This document shows, in pieces, positions 3,738-51,411 of a stretch of 64,000 bases of DNA. Origin of the DNA: an uncultured bacterium (GTDB lineage: Bacteria > Zhuqueibacterota > QNDG01 > DTFT01); assembly GCA_963736115.1 (NCBI GenBank), contig CAVTNR010000014.1:208371-272370 (forward strand). The letters run 5' to 3'. Below the pieces are notes generated by a model. It was not told the DNA's origin and did not search any database. It saw nothing but the letters and a program-made list of their open reading frames with translations. Within the stretch, counting starts at the first letter, position 1, and each line of letters starts with the position of its first letter. Both the position numbers and the translations under genes were made by a program.

Positions 3738-4426
3738 GCCGCATCATCCTGCCGGCCGCGGTCGCGGCCGGACATGAACTTCCGCAGAACGTCCGGCGTT
3801 GCTTCCCGCTTCAGCGCTCCATAGAAACGGGTGAGCGGGAACCCCACCACATTGTAGTAGCAGCCTTCGATCCGGTCGACAAATAGCCCGCTCCGGTCCT
3901 GAATTCCATATGCGCCGGCCTTGTCCATGGGCGAGCCTGAGGTCACGTAATCATCGATCTCCCATTTCTCCAGGGACCGGAACGTCACGGCGGTGCGTTC
4001 GGTGTCCGAACAGCGCCTGCCGGACAGAGCCTGAATCAGCGTAAAACCCGTGAATACGTCGTGGGTTCTGCCGGAGAGCCGACCCAGCATTTCCGCCGCA
4101 TGGCCTGGGGAAGAGGGTTTCCCCAGTATCTCCCCATCCAGAACGACAACCGTGTCCGCTCCCACGATCCATCCATCCGGGGCAGCGCGCAACACCGTCT
4201 CCGCCTTTCCTGCGGACAGGGCGGAGACGAGCGTTCGGGGATCGCCGCGTTCCGGCATGTTTTCCTCGAGGCCCGGTTCCATAATGTCAAAGACGAAACC
4301 CATACGGCGGAGCAGTTCCGCGCGGCGCGGCGAACGGGAAGCCAGAATGAGCCGGGGCGCAGGCTCCGACGACCCGGGCCGGCCGTCTGCCGACGGAAAC
4401 GGAGCGGACGGAGATCGGGTGTTCAT
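3734..4426 (-). CDS. maf: Maf family nucleoside triphosphate pyrophosphatase
   Basis: LILASRSPRRAELL, GADTVV and DKAGAYGIQ motifs. Confidence 0.93.
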   Translation of the reverse strand: MNTRSPSAPFPSADGRPGSSEPAPRLILASRSPRRAELLRRMGFVFDIMEPGLEENMPERGDPRTLVSALSAGKAETVLRAAPDGWIVGADTVVVLDGEILGKPSSPGHAAEMLGRLSGRTHDVFTGFTLIQALSGRRCSDTERTAVTFRSLEKWEIDDYVTSGSPMDKAGAYGIQDRSGLFVDRIEGCYYNVVGFPLTRFYGALKREATPDVLRKFMSGRDRGRQDDAA

Positions 4427-4872: not shown

Positions 4873-5729
4873 CAGGGATTTCCGCCGAAGAAAACTGCGG
4901 CCAGACCGGCCAGCATATCCGCTTTCATCCAGACCGCAAGCCTGCCCAGATGGCCGGGCTCGGGCTTTCGCCACATGGAGACAATGAAAACGAATACCAC
5001 GGCATCCACACCGACGGCCACGATCCAGAGATAGGTTTTCGAGAACCAGCCGAGGCGGTAGGGAAGAACCGTGGCCGCGGCCAGGAGAAGAAGAACGACG
5101 GTGACGAGGACCAGGGAAGCCCGGATTCCGAACCGGATGGGAAATGTGTCCGCCCCCTGGGTCCGGTCGCCCTCCATGTCGTCCACATCCTTGAGTATTT
5201 CCCGGGCCAGGTTGTACAGGAACGAGAAGAGACCGACCACAGCCGCGTTCCGTATGCCGCCGACCGCGAGTCCGCCGTAAACCAGGGCGAGGCCGAGCAT
5301 GAAAGCCACTGTCAGGTTTCCCAGCAAAACCGTCTTTTTCAGGGAGCGGCTGTACAGGACAAGCAGGACCGCGGAAACCAGGGCGATTGAAAGGCAGACC
5401 GTATTGATGAACGCGGCCACCGCGATGCCGGCCAGAAATGCGAGGGTTGCGAAAATCCGAGCGTCCCTGCGGGTCAGGAGACCGGAAGGAAGTGGACGGT
5501 TCGGCTTGTTGATCCGGTCGATTTCAAGATCGTAATAGTCGTTGATCGCATTGGCGCCGGCGCCCAGGAATACGCCGGACATGGCCGCCAGCAGGAGGGG
5601 AATCCATTTCAGCTCGGCCCCGGAAACGAGGCCGCCGACAAGGATTGCTGGAAAAGCGATGGCGAGATTGTTCGGCCTCGCCAGAAGCCAGAAGCCCCGG
5701 ATCCGGTCCGGCCGGAAGGCGGCGTTCAT
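4872..5729 (-). CDS. UbiA-family prenyltransferase, digeranylgeranylglyceryl-phosphate synthase (DGGGPS)-like
   Basis: NDYYDLEIDRINKPNRPLPSG and REILKDVDDMEGD Asp-rich motifs; multiple TM helices. Confidence 0.85.
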   Translation of the reverse strand: MNAAFRPDRIRGFWLLARPNNLAIAFPAILVGGLVSGAELKWIPLLLAAMSGVFLGAGANAINDYYDLEIDRINKPNRPLPSGLLTRRDARIFATLAFLAGIAVAAFINTVCLSIALVSAVLLVLYSRSLKKTVLLGNLTVAFMLGLALVYGGLAVGGIRNAAVVGLFSFLYNLAREILKDVDDMEGDRTQGADTFPIRFGIRASLVLVTVVLLLLAAATVLPYRLGWFSKTYLWIVAVGVDAVVFVFIVSMWRKPEPGHLGRLAVWMKADMLAGLAAVFFGGNP

Positions 5730-12677: not shown

Positions 12678-14159
12678 TCATTTTCCGGATGATTCCTTCA
12701 GTCTCTTTTGCAGGTCCGTGATTTTGTCCTTGTACCGTGTTTCATTGGGCGATTTTTCTAGAAGGGCTTCATAGACTTCGATCGCCTTTTCGAACTGGCC
12801 CTGTGCGGCGTATATCTCGCCGAGGGTGGAAGTCACGATCTTCAGGTCGGAACGGTCATCCGCCTTCGGGGGCGGCGCGGACTCGGCTGTTCCGGCGGCA
12901 GCCGCTGCTTCCAATCGCGGGGGAACAGCCGGGATCTGCGGAGCCGTGGGCGGCGCGGTCGGGCCGGATTGTTTCTCGGCCTTGAACCAGGGAACGGGCT
13001 TGGCGGACTCCGGCGCCGGTGTATTCCGAGGGGGTTCCGGCGCAGGCGGATTCACAGGCGGTTCCAGTTCAGACGGGCTCAGGAACCCCTCAGGCTCCTT
13101 CTTTTCGAACAAGGCAGGCGCCTGCGGTTCCGCCGGTCGGGGCGGAGTTCCGGCCTCGTCCCCGGATGCCGGCGCCTCGAACTCCAGGATTTCAAGCTCG
13201 AGGTCCCGTGATTTTTCGTCGGCCGGGTTTTCCTCGGTCTTCTCCTCCTCCGGGTTGTCGAACGAGGACAAATCGAACCAGTTCTGGGTGAAATCCACCA
13301 TTTCTTCGGCGTTTTTAACCGGTTCAGGCACTGCCGCGGCCGGTGGACCGTCCAGGGCGGAAGGCACCGGCGTTTCCTCGAGGTCCGGAAGAAGGGATTC
13401 GAGTTCGTCGATAGAATCCGTTTCCTCCGCGGCCGGCTGCAGGGCCGTTTCCTCGGTTCCGGGACCAGTCAGCAAATCCACGGGAGGGGCCGAAAAATCG
13501 GGACGGCCGGCTGTCATCGGGACCGGCAGATCAATGTCTTCCGGGCTGAATTCCCGTATCTGTTCGGTCCAGTCAGAGTCAGAGTCCGAGTCATCGGAGG
13601 GAACCGGGACAATCGATTCCCTTTCCGGGGTCGGCATGACCGGCTTGACCGGCGGCGCGGCGGGTTCGGCGTCCGGTTCCTCCAGGGAAGGCGGCTCCGG
13701 TTCAGGCAGTGCAGTCGGTTCCGGGATGGAGACGGGCTGGGGTTTCGGACGGTCCGCGGGCACGGAGTACCGTTTCATCAGATCGCGGACTTTATCCTCC
13801 ATGGGATCGGCGTCGATCACGCTGGCGTAATGTTCGGAGGCAGCCGCTTCCCAGCCGGTCTTGACGAGTATGTCGCCGAGCAGTTTCTGCGCGGACAGGT
13901 ATTGCTGGTCATGCGACAGCACTTTTTTAAGGGCCGCTTCCGCCTTGTCGTATTCCTTGCGGAGAACGTGGGTTCTGGCCAGCAGGAAGTATCCGGTGGT
14001 GTAATAGGGGTGATGTTTCACGCCCTCGGTGCAGAGAACCAGCGCGTCGTCCGAATTGCCGCGCTTCAGGTACTGATCGGCCAGCCGCGCGAACAGAAGC
14101 GATTTCGGGTTGTCCCGCAGACGGGACTCCAGATAGTCGAACAATTCGTCTTTTTCCAC
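12678..14159 (-). CDS. TPR protein with a long acidic, Pro-rich disordered linker
   Basis: N-terminal TPRs (FARLADQYLKRG), a P/E/D-rich middle and a C-terminal TPR (TLGEIYAAQGQFEKAIEVY). Confidence 0.8.
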   Translation of the reverse strand: MEKDELFDYLESRLRDNPKSLLFARLADQYLKRGNSDDALVLCTEGVKHHPYYTTGYFLLARTHVLRKEYDKAEAALKKVLSHDQQYLSAQKLLGDILVKTGWEAAASEHYASVIDADPMEDKVRDLMKRYSVPADRPKPQPVSIPEPTALPEPEPPSLEEPDAEPAAPPVKPVMPTPERESIVPVPSDDSDSDSDWTEQIREFSPEDIDLPVPMTAGRPDFSAPPVDLLTGPGTEETALQPAAEETDSIDELESLLPDLEETPVPSALDGPPAAAVPEPVKNAEEMVDFTQNWFDLSSFDNPEEEKTEENPADEKSRDLELEILEFEAPASGDEAGTPPRPAEPQAPALFEKKEPEGFLSPSELEPPVNPPAPEPPRNTPAPESAKPVPWFKAEKQSGPTAPPTAPQIPAVPPRLEAAAAAGTAESAPPPKADDRSDLKIVTSTLGEIYAAQGQFEKAIEVYEALLEKSPNETRYKDKITDLQKRLKESSGK

Positions 14160-27966: not shown

Positions 27967-28118
27967 AGCACCAAGCACAAAGCATAGAGCTTCAGTCAGT
28001 GATTTGAAGAATATCTGAGAGTTGGGATTGCTTCGATCGGGAGTCCAGAAGCCTGGTCATTCTGGTTCCAGTTTTCCTGGATGATCGAAGATTGGGTTTC
28101 TGACCGCTCCGACGGGTC

Positions 28119-28328
28119 GGATTCTCCGGCCCCGCGATGCGGGAACAAGCTGCAGATGCGGGCTAATGAAGACTTCGCCGGACCCAGTAATGAGATTTGT
28201 TCATTAGTGAAGGCCCTCCGCTTGTCTTCAACAAGCAGGGATATAATAGCTTGATCCCGCAAAGCGGGGCCTTCAAACAGAAGCCATATAAAAGATTGGT
28301 CCCGCGAAGCGGGCGACGGAGTTCTTCA
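28119..28328 (-). mobile_element. GCAAGC-hairpin element carrying four nested ~44 bp mini-units
   Basis: Removing units 28270-28313, 28225-28268 and 28125-28213 (itself containing 28130-28172) leaves TGAAGAACTCCGTCG-C-CAAGCGGAGGG-GAATCC, similar to the 5' end of the element at 50161. Confidence 0.6.
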
Positions 28329-28380
28329 TTATCGAAAGGCCTGGATTCGGATTGGATCGGATCCGGGCCTTTTTATGTGT

Positions 28381-30479: not shown

Positions 30480-30606
30480 TTGAAGCTGCCCGCGGCCCGT
30501 CCCGCATCGCGGGGCCGGGGAATCTTCTATCTGTAGAGAACAGACTATTTATATTCGCTCGCTTACCCCGGGGCAAGCCCCGGGGTAAGCGCTCGCTGAC
30601 AGATTC
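30480..30606 (+). mobile_element. MITE-like two-hairpin element (copy with intact second hairpin)
   Basis: Shares TTGAAGCT, GAATCTTCTATCTGTAGAGAA, ATATTCGCTCGCT and GCGCTCGCTG.CAGATTC with 50161-50409; CCCCGGGGCAAGCCCCGGGG at 30566-30585. Confidence 0.75.
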
Positions 30607-48929: not shown

Positions 48930-49880
48930 ATGAAACATTCAGGAACGGAAAAACGGATTCGAACGGCCGTGGCCGTGGCCGCGGTACTGGCCGTGTCCAT
49001 GGCTTTCAGCGCGGACGAAACAGTAACGCGGTCGTTCACCGCTGAGCCGGGCGGTCGCCTGGTGGTGGACATGGACATGGGACGGATCGAATTGCAATCG
49101 CACTCCTCGAATGAAGTGCGCGTAGACGCGGAATTCGAAAAGGAAGGCTGGAGCCGGGACCGGATACACCGGTTCATCGAAGATTTCGGACTGGAGTTCA
49201 GCCACTCCGCTGGCACCGTGACGGTGCGTTCGGATTACGGTCTGGGGAACGGGAGATCCTGGTTTTCAAGTCAAAAGCATCCGAATATCCGCATCCGGAT
49301 TCTGGTTCCGGCTGTATTCGACGCGGAACTGCGCACGTCCGGCGGATCGGTCTCGGTGGGCGATTTGCAGGGACGGGTGGACGCGAAGACTTCAGGCGGC
49401 GGTCTTGAATTCGGCAGCATCCGCGGCACCGTGAACGGCAGGACGTCGGGCGGGTCCGTGACTGTGGGGGACTGCAGCGGAGATGTGGATGTGCAGACCT
49501 CAGGAGGCAGTATCCGCGTGGGCCGCACGGAAGGGAACGTCCGCGTCCGGACTTCTGGCGGTTCCATCACGCTGGAGTCGGTTTCAGGGGATGTGACCGC
49601 GAAAACTTCGGGTGGCTCCATACGCGCGGTACTCACGAAGAACCCGACCGCCGACTGCTTTTTCGAGACATCCGGAGGCGGCATCACGGTGACCGCGCCT
49701 GCCGGTTTGAAGGCCGACATTGATGCCGGCACCAGCGGCGGACGGGTTTTCACTGATTTTCCGGTCACGGTGATTGGAGAAATCGATCCCCACCGGCTGT
49801 CGGCCCGGATCAACGGCGGCGGTCCGCAAATGATTCTGCGCACATCGGGCGGGGGAATCCGGCTGGAAAAGACGCCCTGA
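48930..49880 (+). CDS. DUF4097 family beta-strand repeat protein
   Basis: Signal peptide; about nine TSGG repeats. Confidence 0.85.
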   Translation: MKHSGTEKRIRTAVAVAAVLAVSMAFSADETVTRSFTAEPGGRLVVDMDMGRIELQSHSSNEVRVDAEFEKEGWSRDRIHRFIEDFGLEFSHSAGTVTVRSDYGLGNGRSWFSSQKHPNIRIRILVPAVFDAELRTSGGSVSVGDLQGRVDAKTSGGGLEFGSIRGTVNGRTSGGSVTVGDCSGDVDVQTSGGSIRVGRTEGNVRVRTSGGSITLESVSGDVTAKTSGGSIRAVLTKNPTADCFFETSGGGITVTAPAGLKADIDAGTSGGRVFTDFPVTVIGEIDPHRLSARINGGGPQMILRTSGGGIRLEKTP

Positions 49881-49982
49881 AGCAACGGCGGGTGATATCA
49901 TGCCTTCCATCCGCGCCTTTTGACAGCATCCGACCGGGCGGCTCGGTTTTTTTTACAGGAAACTCTGGGCAACCCTTCCGCG

Positions 49983-50125
49983 GTCGGCCGGCCGACAGAT
50001 CTTCAGACTCCGCGCGAAGCTCGGAGTCTGATAATCTAAAACAGGTCGGCACCGGAGTGCCGACTCGTTGATCAGCGGCCTATGGCCGCTGATCAACGCC
50101 ACCCGCTTCGCGGGTGGTAGTTTAC
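49983..50125. repeat. Cluster of five REP-like palindromes
   Basis: Hairpins at 49983-49996, 50003-50031, 50045-50064, 50066-50098 and 50099-50117; the last is followed by TAGTTTAC. Confidence 0.7.
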
Positions 50126-50160
50126 TCCGGAGCGGGTGAGCCGAAGTCTTCGCGCGCGCA

Positions 50161-50409
50161 TTGAAGCTCCCCGCCGCCCGCTGCGCGGGACCAATTTATT
50201 ATATTTTTAGAGTATTGAAGGCAAGCGGCGGGCCTTCAATAGTGAACAGATCAAATAACTTGGTGCCGCTTTGCGGCGAATCTTCTATCTGTAGAGAAGA
50301 GACATCTGATATTCGCTCGCTAACCCCGCGGCCCGCTGCGCGGGATCAAGCGATCATATTTTCGAATTATTGAAGACAAGCCGCGGGGAATGCGCTCGCT
50401 GTCAGATTC
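50161..50409 (+). mobile_element. MITE-like two-hairpin element with three nested 45 bp mini-units
   Basis: Homologous to 30480-30606; units at 50177-50221 (+), 50233-50277 (-) and 50332-50376 (+); deleting them restores two perfect GCAAGC hairpins. Confidence 0.8.
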
Positions 50410-50436
50410 TCCGGACAACTCATACGGAAAGACCTA

Positions 50437-51411
50437 TTGAAATTTCCGATCCGAAAAAGCCGGCTTTTTCTTGTCCTGAAGCTGTTGATCACGGCCGTGG
50501 TGATGCTGGTCCTGGTCCGCGCGGTGCATGTCCGGGAGATTCTCGGGGCGCTCCGTAATCCCGCTCAACCCGACTGCCTGGCCGCGGCCGCGATTCTGCT
50601 CGTTCCGAACCTCCTCCTGCAGTGGATCCGCTGGCATCTCCTGCTCCGGCTCATCAACCCGGACACTCCGGTTTCAGATTCCGTCGCTTCGCTCTTCGGC
50701 GGCATGGTGGCCGGGTTCGTCACCCCCGGCCGCATCGGCGAAATCGGCCGCACGCTGTTTCTGAAGCATGAGGACCGTCTTCAGGCCGTGGGTTTGATCG
50801 TCATTGACAAACTGTACGCATTCTTTCCGGTCGCGGCCGCCGGCTTCTGGGGGCTGGTCCTTCTGCTGTCCTACCAGTACGGGTATGCCCCTTTTCTGGT
50901 CTGGCCGCTGTTCTTCGGCGCCGCTTTTTTCACGGTCATTTCCCTGACCGTGATTCTGCATCCCGAATGGATCCGCTCTTTTCTGTATTACCTCTCCATG
51001 CTGATGCCCGCCCGGGAGAAGCTGAAACGCATCATTTCGTGCATCGATCGTTTCGGCCGACCGGACGCTCTTGTGCAGACCGGACTTGCTGTGTTGCTGT
51101 ACACAGTGTACATTCTTCAGTTCTGTCTGCTGGCGTTCGCATTTCAGCACATCCCGTGGACTACGGCGCTCACCGCAACCACATCGGTGATTCTCGTCAA
51201 GACGATACTGCCCGTTTCCATCGGGGATCTCGGAATCCGGGAAGGCGCGTCCATCTATTTTTTCACCCGTTTCAACGTGGAACAAGCGACGGCTTTTAAT
51301 GCCTCTCTTATGCTCTTCGTGCTCAATGTTCTGGTTCCCACAATACTGGGGCTCATTTTCATCCCGCGTATGGGATGGCCGGAGAGGAAAGATGTGAACC
51401 GGGACAAATAA
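50437..51411 (+). CDS. Lysylphosphatidylglycerol synthase TM-domain (flippase-like) membrane protein
   Basis: RWHLLL, FVTPGRIGEIGR and PVSIGDLGIRE motifs; multiple TM helices. Confidence 0.85.
   Translation: MKFPIRKSRLFLVLKLLITAVVMLVLVRAVHVREILGALRNPAQPDCLAAAAILLVPNLLLQWIRWHLLLRLINPDTPVSDSVASLFGGMVAGFVTPGRIGEIGRTLFLKHEDRLQAVGLIVIDKLYAFFPVAAAGFWGLVLLLSYQYGYAPFLVWPLFFGAAFFTVISLTVILHPEWIRSFLYYLSMLMPAREKLKRIISCIDRFGRPDALVQTGLAVLLYTVYILQFCLLAFAFQHIPWTTALTATTSVILVKTILPVSIGDLGIREGASIYFFTRFNVEQATAFNASLMLFVLNVLVPTILGLIFIPRMGWPERKDVNRDK

Follow-up and report, generated by a model that had tools for sequence, protein, structure and literature searches.

Repetitive extragenic palindromes (REPs) are hairpin sequences in which, under the definition quoted from PMC6006769, a GT[AG]G tetranucleotide stands 0-2 nt 5' of the hairpin foot; the search rule given there takes stems of 7-20 bp. 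The same source describes ends of the IS608 type, whose cleavage site is set through pairing with guide bases next to the hairpin foot. Insertion sequences can target such repeats: IS1397 inserts into palindromic units, and Tobes and Pareja wrote on REPs as insertion sequence targets, both as cited in PMC3116915. The small dispersed repeats (SDRs) of heterocyst-forming cyanobacteria (Elhai et al. 2008, Genome Res 18:1484), for which the sources used here are one-line descriptions (PMC3116915, PMC2884548), are very small and have been proposed to be mobile, with the enzyme unknown. The subject of this report is a hairpin-headed repeat unit of 42-46 nt, present in three copies at positions 50160-50409 of a 64,000-nt stretch of DNA, called the window, from contig CAVTNR010000014.1 of an uncultured bacterium of the phylum Zhuqueibacterota. 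The unit is best read as a very small non-autonomous mobile DNA element. It is well supported that the unit is discrete and has been inserted (or excised) repeatedly and precisely at set positions in hairpins.

Other small or hairpin-directed elements belong to the same background. Derivatives of IS200/IS605 elements that encode no protein are palindrome-associated transposable elements (PATEs), IS621 and other members of the IS110 family target REP hairpins, and miniature inverted-repeat transposable elements (MITEs) include Correia, RUP and Nezha. Cyanobacterial SDRs reportedly measure 21-27 nt and are often nested. No report of miniature elements that insert in loops without duplication was found in the literature searched.

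The window belongs to a metagenome-assembled genome (MAG) of 3,342,226 bp, 60% G+C and 87% completeness, which is labelled G000 and consists of 31 contigs (C1-C31). It was compared with the genomes of relatives (G001-G004 and G026) and with 80 related loci in relatives' MAGs, which carry labels of the form L029. The composite of host repeat and units in the window is intergenic, lying between co-directional + strand open reading frames (ORFs) at 48930-49880 and 50437-51411 (Table 1). An earlier note on this DNA had placed three 45-nt units here, and both their positions and their layout proved exact to the base. Deletion of the units leaves the flanks CCCCGCCG/CAAGCGGCGGG/G and CCCCGCGG/CAAGCCGCGGGG, which form two perfect 20-nt hairpins with 8-bp stems and CAAG loops. 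As the note had claimed, no base is duplicated; the junction is ambiguous by a single C, because the unit begins with C and the next host base is also C. The uninterrupted hairpin 1 form, CCCCGCCGCAAGCGGCGGGG, has 16 exact occurrences in the genome and that of hairpin 2 has 14, in each case counting both strands. The location of two units 5' of the CAAG loop and of one inverted unit at the hairpin foot was also as claimed. Units 1 and 2, which come from different subfamilies, form an inverted pair with arms that are 73% complementary. Folded as single-stranded DNA, the whole composite reaches -53.1 kcal/mol (z -4.2), because the host stems enclose the units and unit 1 pairs with unit 2.

Table 1. 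Positions of the composite in the window, of two further host elements in the window, and of the RAYT genes (defined in the text) of genome G000
Feature	Position	Strand	Composition	Support
Type I host element with three units	50160-50409	+	ATTGAAGCT, hairpin 1, 45-nt spacer, hairpin 2, AATGCGCTCGCTGTCAGATTC	Sequence reading
Host hairpin 1, split	50169-50278	+	5' arm CCCCGCCG 50169-50176; loop and 3' arm CAAGCGGCGGG 50222-50232; last G 50278	
Unit 1, 45 nt, ACCA...G type, between 5' arm and CAAG loop of hairpin 1	50177-50221	+	CCCGC-TGC-GCGGG, ACCA, 21-nt AT-rich core, TTGAAGG	nhmmer E 1.6e-10
Unit 2, 45 nt, inverted at 3' foot of hairpin 1 (GGG^G)	50233-50277	-	GCCGC-AAA-GCGGC, ACCA, core, TTGAAGG; site on its own strand GATTC^CCCGCCG	nhmmer E 3.2e-08
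Central spacer of type I element, 45 nt, kept in other copies	50279-50323	+	AATCTTCTATCTGTAGAGAAGAGACATCTGATATTCGCTCGCTAA	
Host hairpin 2, split	50324-50388	+	5' arm CCCCGCGG 50324-50331; loop and 3' arm CAAGCCGCGGGG 50377-50388	
Unit 3, 45 nt, ATCA...A type, between 5' arm and CAAG loop of hairpin 2	50332-50376	+	CCCGC-TGC-GCGGG, ATCA, core, TTGAAGA	nhmmer E 4.2e-11
Second composite: type II host with four units, three nesting levels	28033-28330	-	42-nt unit 28131-28172 (+) inside the hairpin of a unit ending at 28213 (+); others 28225-28268 (-) and 28270-28313 (-); pattern matches at C14:236501-236683 of G000	
Type I element without a complete unit, missing at the orthologous site of three congeners	30480-30606	+	Empty site ...GGGCT/CAAGG...	
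RAYT gene L001	C17:75006-75746			
RAYT gene L002	C2:71370-71915			
RAYT gene L003	C19:57393-57902			

The unit is a real, discrete family with a copy number far above chance. The search pattern of the earlier note has 113 matches in the genome, so further copies exist. A looser pattern that requires a perfect 5-bp stem has 126 matches, compared with one in the reversed (uncomplemented) genome, and a strict pattern has 85, compared with none for the same pattern read backwards. With a profile built from pattern matches (nhmmer), the copy number is 188 at a limit of E<=0.1 and 166 at E<1e-3. The length distribution peaks at 42 nt (21 copies), 44 nt (49) and 45 nt (44). Each unit starts with a 5-bp GC hairpin that has a 3-nt loop, continues with A-[C/T]-C-A and an AT-rich core, and ends in TTGAAG[G/A]. 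The hairpin is conserved; the core is poorly conserved. For the rules of unit structure, 231 strict units were pooled, 123 from G000 and 108 from the 80 related loci. The base 3' of the unit is C in 212 of them, and the base 5' is variable (C 98, G 66, T 65, A 2).

The family is confined to one order among the genomes sampled. Of 151 genomes sampled from the phylum, 9 contain the strict pattern; they all belong to a single order, represented by 31 genomes, and the other 120 genomes have no match. The four genomes of the genus hold 85, 53, 50 and 35 copies, G026 holds 15, and four others hold 1-4; the reversed control gave 0 throughout. A scan of viral contigs gave 0 unit matches. The 15 strict copies of G026 are near-identical, lie on different contigs, and are all of the ATCA...A type with a CCCGC-ACA-GCGGG head, which points to a recent burst in that species.

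The earlier note had assigned the host hairpins to another repeat. That assignment holds, with the correction that they are parts of a two-hairpin element of about 118 nt that is itself mobile. This type I host consists of ATTGAAGCT, hairpin 1, a 45-nt spacer, hairpin 2 and a 3' tail ending in CAGATTC. Unit-free copies of about 118 nt are found elsewhere, for example at C27:116635-116752 of G000, and nhmmer with that copy matches the window at 50272-50409. The type II host, of about 180 nt, is composed of TGAAGGA, a hairpin, TATCACAAGAAACTTGGATGATGGAC, a second hairpin and a long imperfect stem ending in CCCGATTGA. Searches of G000 with one unit-free copy of each type (nhmmer) gave 58 type I clusters, 19 of them unit-free, and 46 type II clusters, 29 of them unit-free; the crude clustering partly splits interrupted elements in these counts.

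Hairpins with a CAAG loop are empty at 50 places in the genome and carry a unit at the same position at 44, with junctions precise to one base. The targets fall into three classes. The first is the 5' side of the apical C-N2-3-G in GC hairpins, which includes the CAAG loops of types I and II as well as loops in GTAG-type REPs and in further units. The second is the T-rich/CCCG junction at the 5' foot of a GC hairpin, which may be the head of another unit; insertion here gives inverted or tandem pairs. The third comprises TGAAG words, which overlap the unit's own end. The inverted orientation reported for the foot position is correct, but the position is better described as a separate target, defined by sequence and used by unit subfamilies of its own. 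It is occupied in 16 of the 44 loop-filled hairpins, where the inverted second unit lies 11 nt away, and in 2 of the 50 empty ones.

Units are not limited to the kind of composite seen at 50160-50409. Of 178 units at E<=0.01, a crude test places 97 away from any detected type I or type II element, and many of these are in heavily interrupted hosts. Apart from type II elements, units are found in the loops of two GTAG-type REP families, those that flank RAYT genes on C2 and C19, where unit and target have TGAAG in common. They are nested in one another's loops (for example at the flank CCGG(T)^CTTCGCCGG), they form at least four head-to-tail pairs, and they occupy solitary sites. One subfamily with a near-identical core (AGCTATTATATGCCTTCTGG) is present in hairpin 1 and hairpin 2 of type I and in the second hairpin of type II. 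Host loops at window positions 30496-30514, at L020:~5270-5345 and at G000 C27:~13990-14020 hold a unit-like head only (e.g. CCCGT-CCCGCATCGCGGG-G), with no AT-rich tail. Decay of a unit, or a footprint of its loss, could account for such heads.

Filled and empty orthologous sites, which the earlier note had suggested looking for, are represented by three clean single-unit pairs. A 44-nt unit occupies the first hairpin loop of an orthologous type II element at C27:13896-13939 of G000, and L063 is empty there, with a gap of exactly 44 columns. L029 is filled at positions 4166-4210, at GTCAT(T)C^CCCG, and the site on C8 of G000 is empty. L032 is filled at positions 264-308, inside a REP arm at CCTT^CCGGAGCG, and the site on C22 of G000 is empty. 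In Logan contigs of other metagenomes, whose source loci and organisms are not known, hairpin 2 of the window composite occurs in forms with and without exactly 50332-50376.

The comparison of G000 with the 80 related loci covered 52 syntenic gaps with units, of which 16 have a repeat cluster on one side and no more than 13 nt on the other. Junctions of whole composites were read in 12 of these 16 gaps and at three further sites. At seven site pairs TT is present at each end of the type I element and just once, before CA, in the empty site (in one case as a single T). At six sites the type II ends and the empty site have 1 to 5 nt of the joined-end word GAT/TGAAG in common. The exact presence and absence at orthologous sites indicates that the type I and type II hosts have themselves been gained or lost precisely. 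L047, L019, the second hairpin of L063, L020 and L034 were left out as too diverged or rearranged for single events. The locus of the window composite is about 370 bp shorter in three congeners, which lack the whole repeat cluster. Units and hosts thus make intergenic regions differ by hundreds of bases between congeners, and metagenome assemblies break at such sites.

The two ends of the unit are linked by covariation. In the 231 units, the base at position 15, the second one past the hairpin, changes together with the final base (C:G 131, T:A 91, other 9). Both concordant states are present in four of nine core-sequence clusters, so the double change has occurred repeatedly. In 142 distinct sequences the pair is CG in 72, UA in 65, UG in 3, AU in 1 and another combination in 1; its score is 0.215, compared with at most 0.071 for slid partners, and 0 of 500 shuffles reached the observed scores. 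The 5-bp stem in the alignment was imposed by the selection pattern, which also fixed the adjoining C:G pair, so that only the pair 15:51 is informative. The last two bases of the unit (G-R) are able to pair with the Y-C that follows the hairpin, and the covarying pair points to a folded intermediate. When the ends are joined on paper, the unit reads TTGAAG-R-CCCGC NNN GCGGG-AYCA, a layout seen also at the 5' end of type I (TTGAAG-CT-hairpin-AATC) and of type II (TGAAG-GA-hairpin-TATC). Read in the same way, insertion at a foot sets the unit's TTGAAGG directly before the host hairpin and recreates the joined-end layout.

Orientation was measured against the local GC skew in 30-kb windows. The locally C-rich strand is preferred by type II elements (35:11), type I elements (31:17) and loop units (39:14). 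Foot units show the opposite preference (11:33), as expected of inverted partners. The bias fits a preference for one replication strand and is no proof of one.

The unit is too small for a protein-coding gene and can therefore be moved only by an enzyme that acts in trans. The three Y1_Tnp loci of G000 are genes of REP-associated tyrosine transposases (RAYTs) that pass the NCBIfam cut-off for this family. Each is flanked by a distinct REP of its own: GGGAGT-GCCGCGC-N4-GCGCGGC at L001, GGTAGCCGCAGCC... at L002 and GTAGGTCCGAAATGCC... at L003. REP_Tyr_transpos has 24 matches in five relatives and Y1_Tnp 34 matches in five further relatives, 12 of which were inspected. Relatives carry up to 11 Y1/RAYT matches per genome, and every inspected flank has other palindromes. 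The lineage is unusually rich in REP-RAYT systems. The earlier note had proposed a search for an element of the IS200/IS605, RAYT or IS110 type with the unit's ends; no such gene was found among the loci inspected, nor one of the IS91 type. At none of the 43 Y1/RAYT/IS110/Y2 loci, drawn from 10 genomes, does a unit or a host element of type I or II stand beside the gene, and the sole full unit match near an inspected transposase locus, L133, is about 1.4 kb from the gene. The 10 genomes are 76-96% complete, so the gene of the enzyme may be missing from them.

IS110 genes gave three matches in five genomes, one in G000, two in G001 and none in G002-G004, and have no unit-like ends. The G000 gene, in locus L156 (C14:86661-90077), encodes 355 aa and lies in a stretch with a G+C content much below that of the genome, next to AT-rich sequence; it looks foreign. 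The TnpB zinc-ribbon domain was found in none of five genomes. IS91 Y2 genes number none in the genus and one in G026; a partial "unit" near the latter is a chance match inside an integrase gene. Self-megablast of G000 revealed no multi-copy repeat of transposase size, and repeats of 1.5-1.8 kb that were considered as transposase candidates are paralogues of outer-membrane proteins. A long element with the same ends, also suggested as a search target in the earlier note, was not detected when G000 was searched for heads without tails: all six "orphan heads" are decayed units with mutated or truncated tails.

Measured against described systems, the unit is filed as a variant of the small non-autonomous hairpin repeats of REP/REPIN and IS200/IS605 likeness, and as a member of neither family. 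It resembles REP/REPIN-RAYT systems in being a short GC-rich extragenic hairpin with about a hundred or more copies, confined to one lineage, with several RAYT genes in the same genomes. Its frequent inverted pairs may correspond to REPIN doublets, but the two paired units belong to different subfamilies. A joined or foot-inserted unit also sets GAAG 1 nt 5' of the hairpin foot. However, its tag is GAAG instead of GT[AG]G, and integrated units have this tag at the end opposite the hairpin. In place of GT[AG]G, a variable host base precedes the hairpin, GAAG is found 1 nt 5' of it only in tandem, joined or foot-inserted forms, and a RAYT gene with flanking units was found at none of the 43 loci. 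The stem is only 5 bp long, an AT-rich tail of about 30 nt belongs to the unit, and units reside inside other hairpins. With IS200/IS605 elements such as IS608 and ISDra2, the unit shares hairpin-based ends, a strand bias and the lack of target duplication. The covariation of position 15 with the last base may be analogous to guide pairing, although the partner is 3' of the hairpin and the pairing could span only 2 bp. Whereas those elements have subterminal hairpins at both ends, the unit has one 5' hairpin and measures 42-46 nt in all. Its left flank has no fixed tetra- or pentanucleotide (GCCG, GCGG, ATTC, CCGT and others occur), and neither a TnpA (Y1) element with these ends nor TnpB was found in the loci and genomes searched.

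The resemblance to SDRs, as far as one-line descriptions allow it to be judged, lies in a very small size, dispersal, proposed mobility and lack of a known enzyme. SDRs belong to another phylum and have other sequences, and the unit is distinguished by its hairpin head, covarying end pair and defined hairpin positions. As with IS1397 and IS621, hairpins of extragenic repeats are landing sites; those elements are full-length and encode a transposase, whereas the invader here has 45 nt and also enters its own copies. Like MITEs, the unit is small, non-autonomous, intergenic and of high copy number. It differs from them in having no terminal inverted repeats (CCCGC... at one end, ...TTGAAGR at the other) and no target-site duplication, and it is 2 to 5 times smaller.

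There is about an even chance that the unit moves as folded single-stranded DNA through an enzyme of the HUH/RAYT type, with a joined-end intermediate that rebuilds a GAAG-tagged hairpin. Single-strand chemistry, the joined intermediate and the class of the enzyme are what we infer from an anatomy centred on a hairpin, the covariation between the ends, insertion without duplication, the bias in strand and the wealth of RAYTs. The unit would fold as single-stranded DNA and be handled in trans by a hairpin-binding HUH enzyme (Y1, RAYT-like). The 3' cleavage site would be set by the 2-bp pairing, as with the guide and cleavage-site tetranucleotides in IS608 ends, and the cut unit would be re-joined at another hairpin. 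The earlier note had proposed a very small element that parasitises hairpins and is mobilised in trans. Its discreteness, nesting, presence or absence at sites and non-coding size all agree with the data; the link to a particular transposase family is hypothetical.

Several observations weigh against movement as single-stranded DNA. No enzyme is linked to the unit at the 43 loci, each RAYT examined is flanked by a different REP, and G000 is only 87% complete. The geometry is unlike that of IS608 or REPs, with one hairpin instead of two, the pairing partner 3' instead of 5', and no fixed tetranucleotide in the left flank. The pairing of G-R with Y-C is weak at 2 bp, and the unit alone folds solely into its own 5-bp hairpin (z -0.5 to -2.7). 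The strand bias is confounded with gene orientation (r = 0.51 between GC skew and gene-strand bias). Comparisons of filled and empty sites cannot separate gain from precise loss. Finally, the target type is tied to the subfamily, with separate core clusters before CAAG (loops), CCCG (feet) and CTTC/CTAC/CTGC (loops of units and REPs), so part of the pattern could stem from co-amplification of composites and not from independent insertion.

A more tentative version of the single-strand reading is that the unit may be a circularly permuted REP, a self-contained 45-nt parasite of single-stranded DNA whose joined ends rebuild the GAAG-tagged hairpin. The rebuilt hairpin would serve one HUH enzyme as the signal for excision and as a device for homing. 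The unit would swap into the apex or foot of similar GC hairpins, its own copies included, and rounds of this process would produce three-level nesting. The type I (~118 nt) and type II (~180 nt) elements would share the 5' module with the unit, as its larger relatives. If this were true, the unit would rank as the smallest transposable one to combine defined ends with an internal guide-like pair, and hairpin-in-hairpin insertion would be a new mode of targeting. The family bears on two long-standing questions, the spread of REP-like repeats and the lower size limit of mobile elements. As handles on them it offers precise borders, numerous sites in the empty and the filled state, covariation between the ends, defined hairpin positions, self-nesting and apparent recent bursts. 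If the enzyme were found, the unit could provide a minimal substrate for structure-guided transposition of single-stranded DNA and possibly a compact tool for DNA insertion at hairpins.

It is unlikely that the units and their type I and type II hosts move instead as double-stranded DNA, by means of a site-specific or RNA-guided (IS110-type) recombinase that acts in trans and crosses over at a short shared core. Such a recombinase would account for the brief overlaps of type I and type II ends with the empty site and for the TGAAG common to GTAG-REP-loop units and their target, and one IS110-family gene is present in G000. However, this single copy is AT-rich, has no such ends and is missing from two of three congeners holding 35-50 units. 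The loop insertions have just one base (C) in common with the unit, and the model has no need of the internal covarying pair. No recombinase gene was found beside the elements, although tyrosine and serine recombinases were not systematically searched for.

Quite unlikely is an origin without transposition, in which the composites would be mosaics comparable to bacterial interspersed mosaic elements (BIMEs), shuffled by recombination, gene conversion or replication slippage among hairpin modules. The many combinations of modules, the strong tie of foot units to loop-filled hairpins, the linkage of subfamily with context and the head-only remnants in some loops would fit this origin. Shuffling does not readily explain exact presence or absence of 42-46 nt at orthologous sites that are outside host repeats or in unrelated repeats, nor the one-base precision of the junctions in 44 filled hairpins. 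The same subfamily in unrelated hosts and the near-identical copies on different G026 contigs also argue against it.

The proposal that the units are functional modules selected in place, such as small structured RNAs, protein-binding sites or promoter/terminator cassettes, is highly improbable. It draws on the covarying base pair and conserved hairpin, on the AT-rich core within a 60% G+C genome, and on the near-exclusive placement between genes (149 of 166 units lie outside ORFs by crude ORF calls). Of these, 120 are between co-directional genes, and their orientation relative to the genes is even (59 same, 61 opposite). The cassette of small structured RNAs suggested in the earlier note found little support. 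Rfam 15 gave only chance-level microRNA and snoRNA matches, none near any gathering score, for window positions 49800-50600 (E<=10) and eight host copies (E<=1), and the units have no structure besides the 5-bp hairpin. No sigma-70-like promoter and no T-run after the hairpins was detected: a scan of 49800-50600 yielded 0 promoter-like sites and 3 terminator-like sites (1.2 expected), and the sole one with a real T-run, at 49932-49948, belongs to the upstream gene. The poor conservation of the core and the dispensability of whole composites at orthologous sites also speak against selected function. Local misassembly is a negligible explanation: the MAG is in 31 contigs, none of the public runs listed holds half or more of the stretch, let alone all of it, no RNA run is listed as containing it, and the Logan contigs of four runs are short and end in the repeat, but the nested architecture recurs at dozens of G000 loci and in independent assemblies of at least eight other genomes, so it was not created by the assembly of G000.

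Further palindromes are located just upstream of the window composite, at 50040-50069 (13-bp arms) and at 50066-50098 (a perfect 15-bp palindrome). They are followed by CACCCGC-TTC-GCGGGTG at 50100-50116 and then by ACTCCGGAGCGG, a word that recurs beside the RAYT gene on C17. These palindromes (window 50040-50135) are part of the ~370 bp missing in three congeners. Elsewhere in G000, three genes of outer-membrane beta-barrel proteins are about 91% identical (C19:73517-75154, C27:129253-130913 and C27:137852-139340). The gene beside each has a type IX secretion-like sorting domain at its C-terminal end; these names were given by eye from the translations. Three pairs of G000 contig ends are 97-99% identical over 5.7-7.7 kb (C16:13420-21129 and C7:38567-46278; C24:14206-21790 and C27:1-7590; C13:1-5686 and C31:1-5655), which suggests strain-level redundancy or unresolved assembly overlaps.

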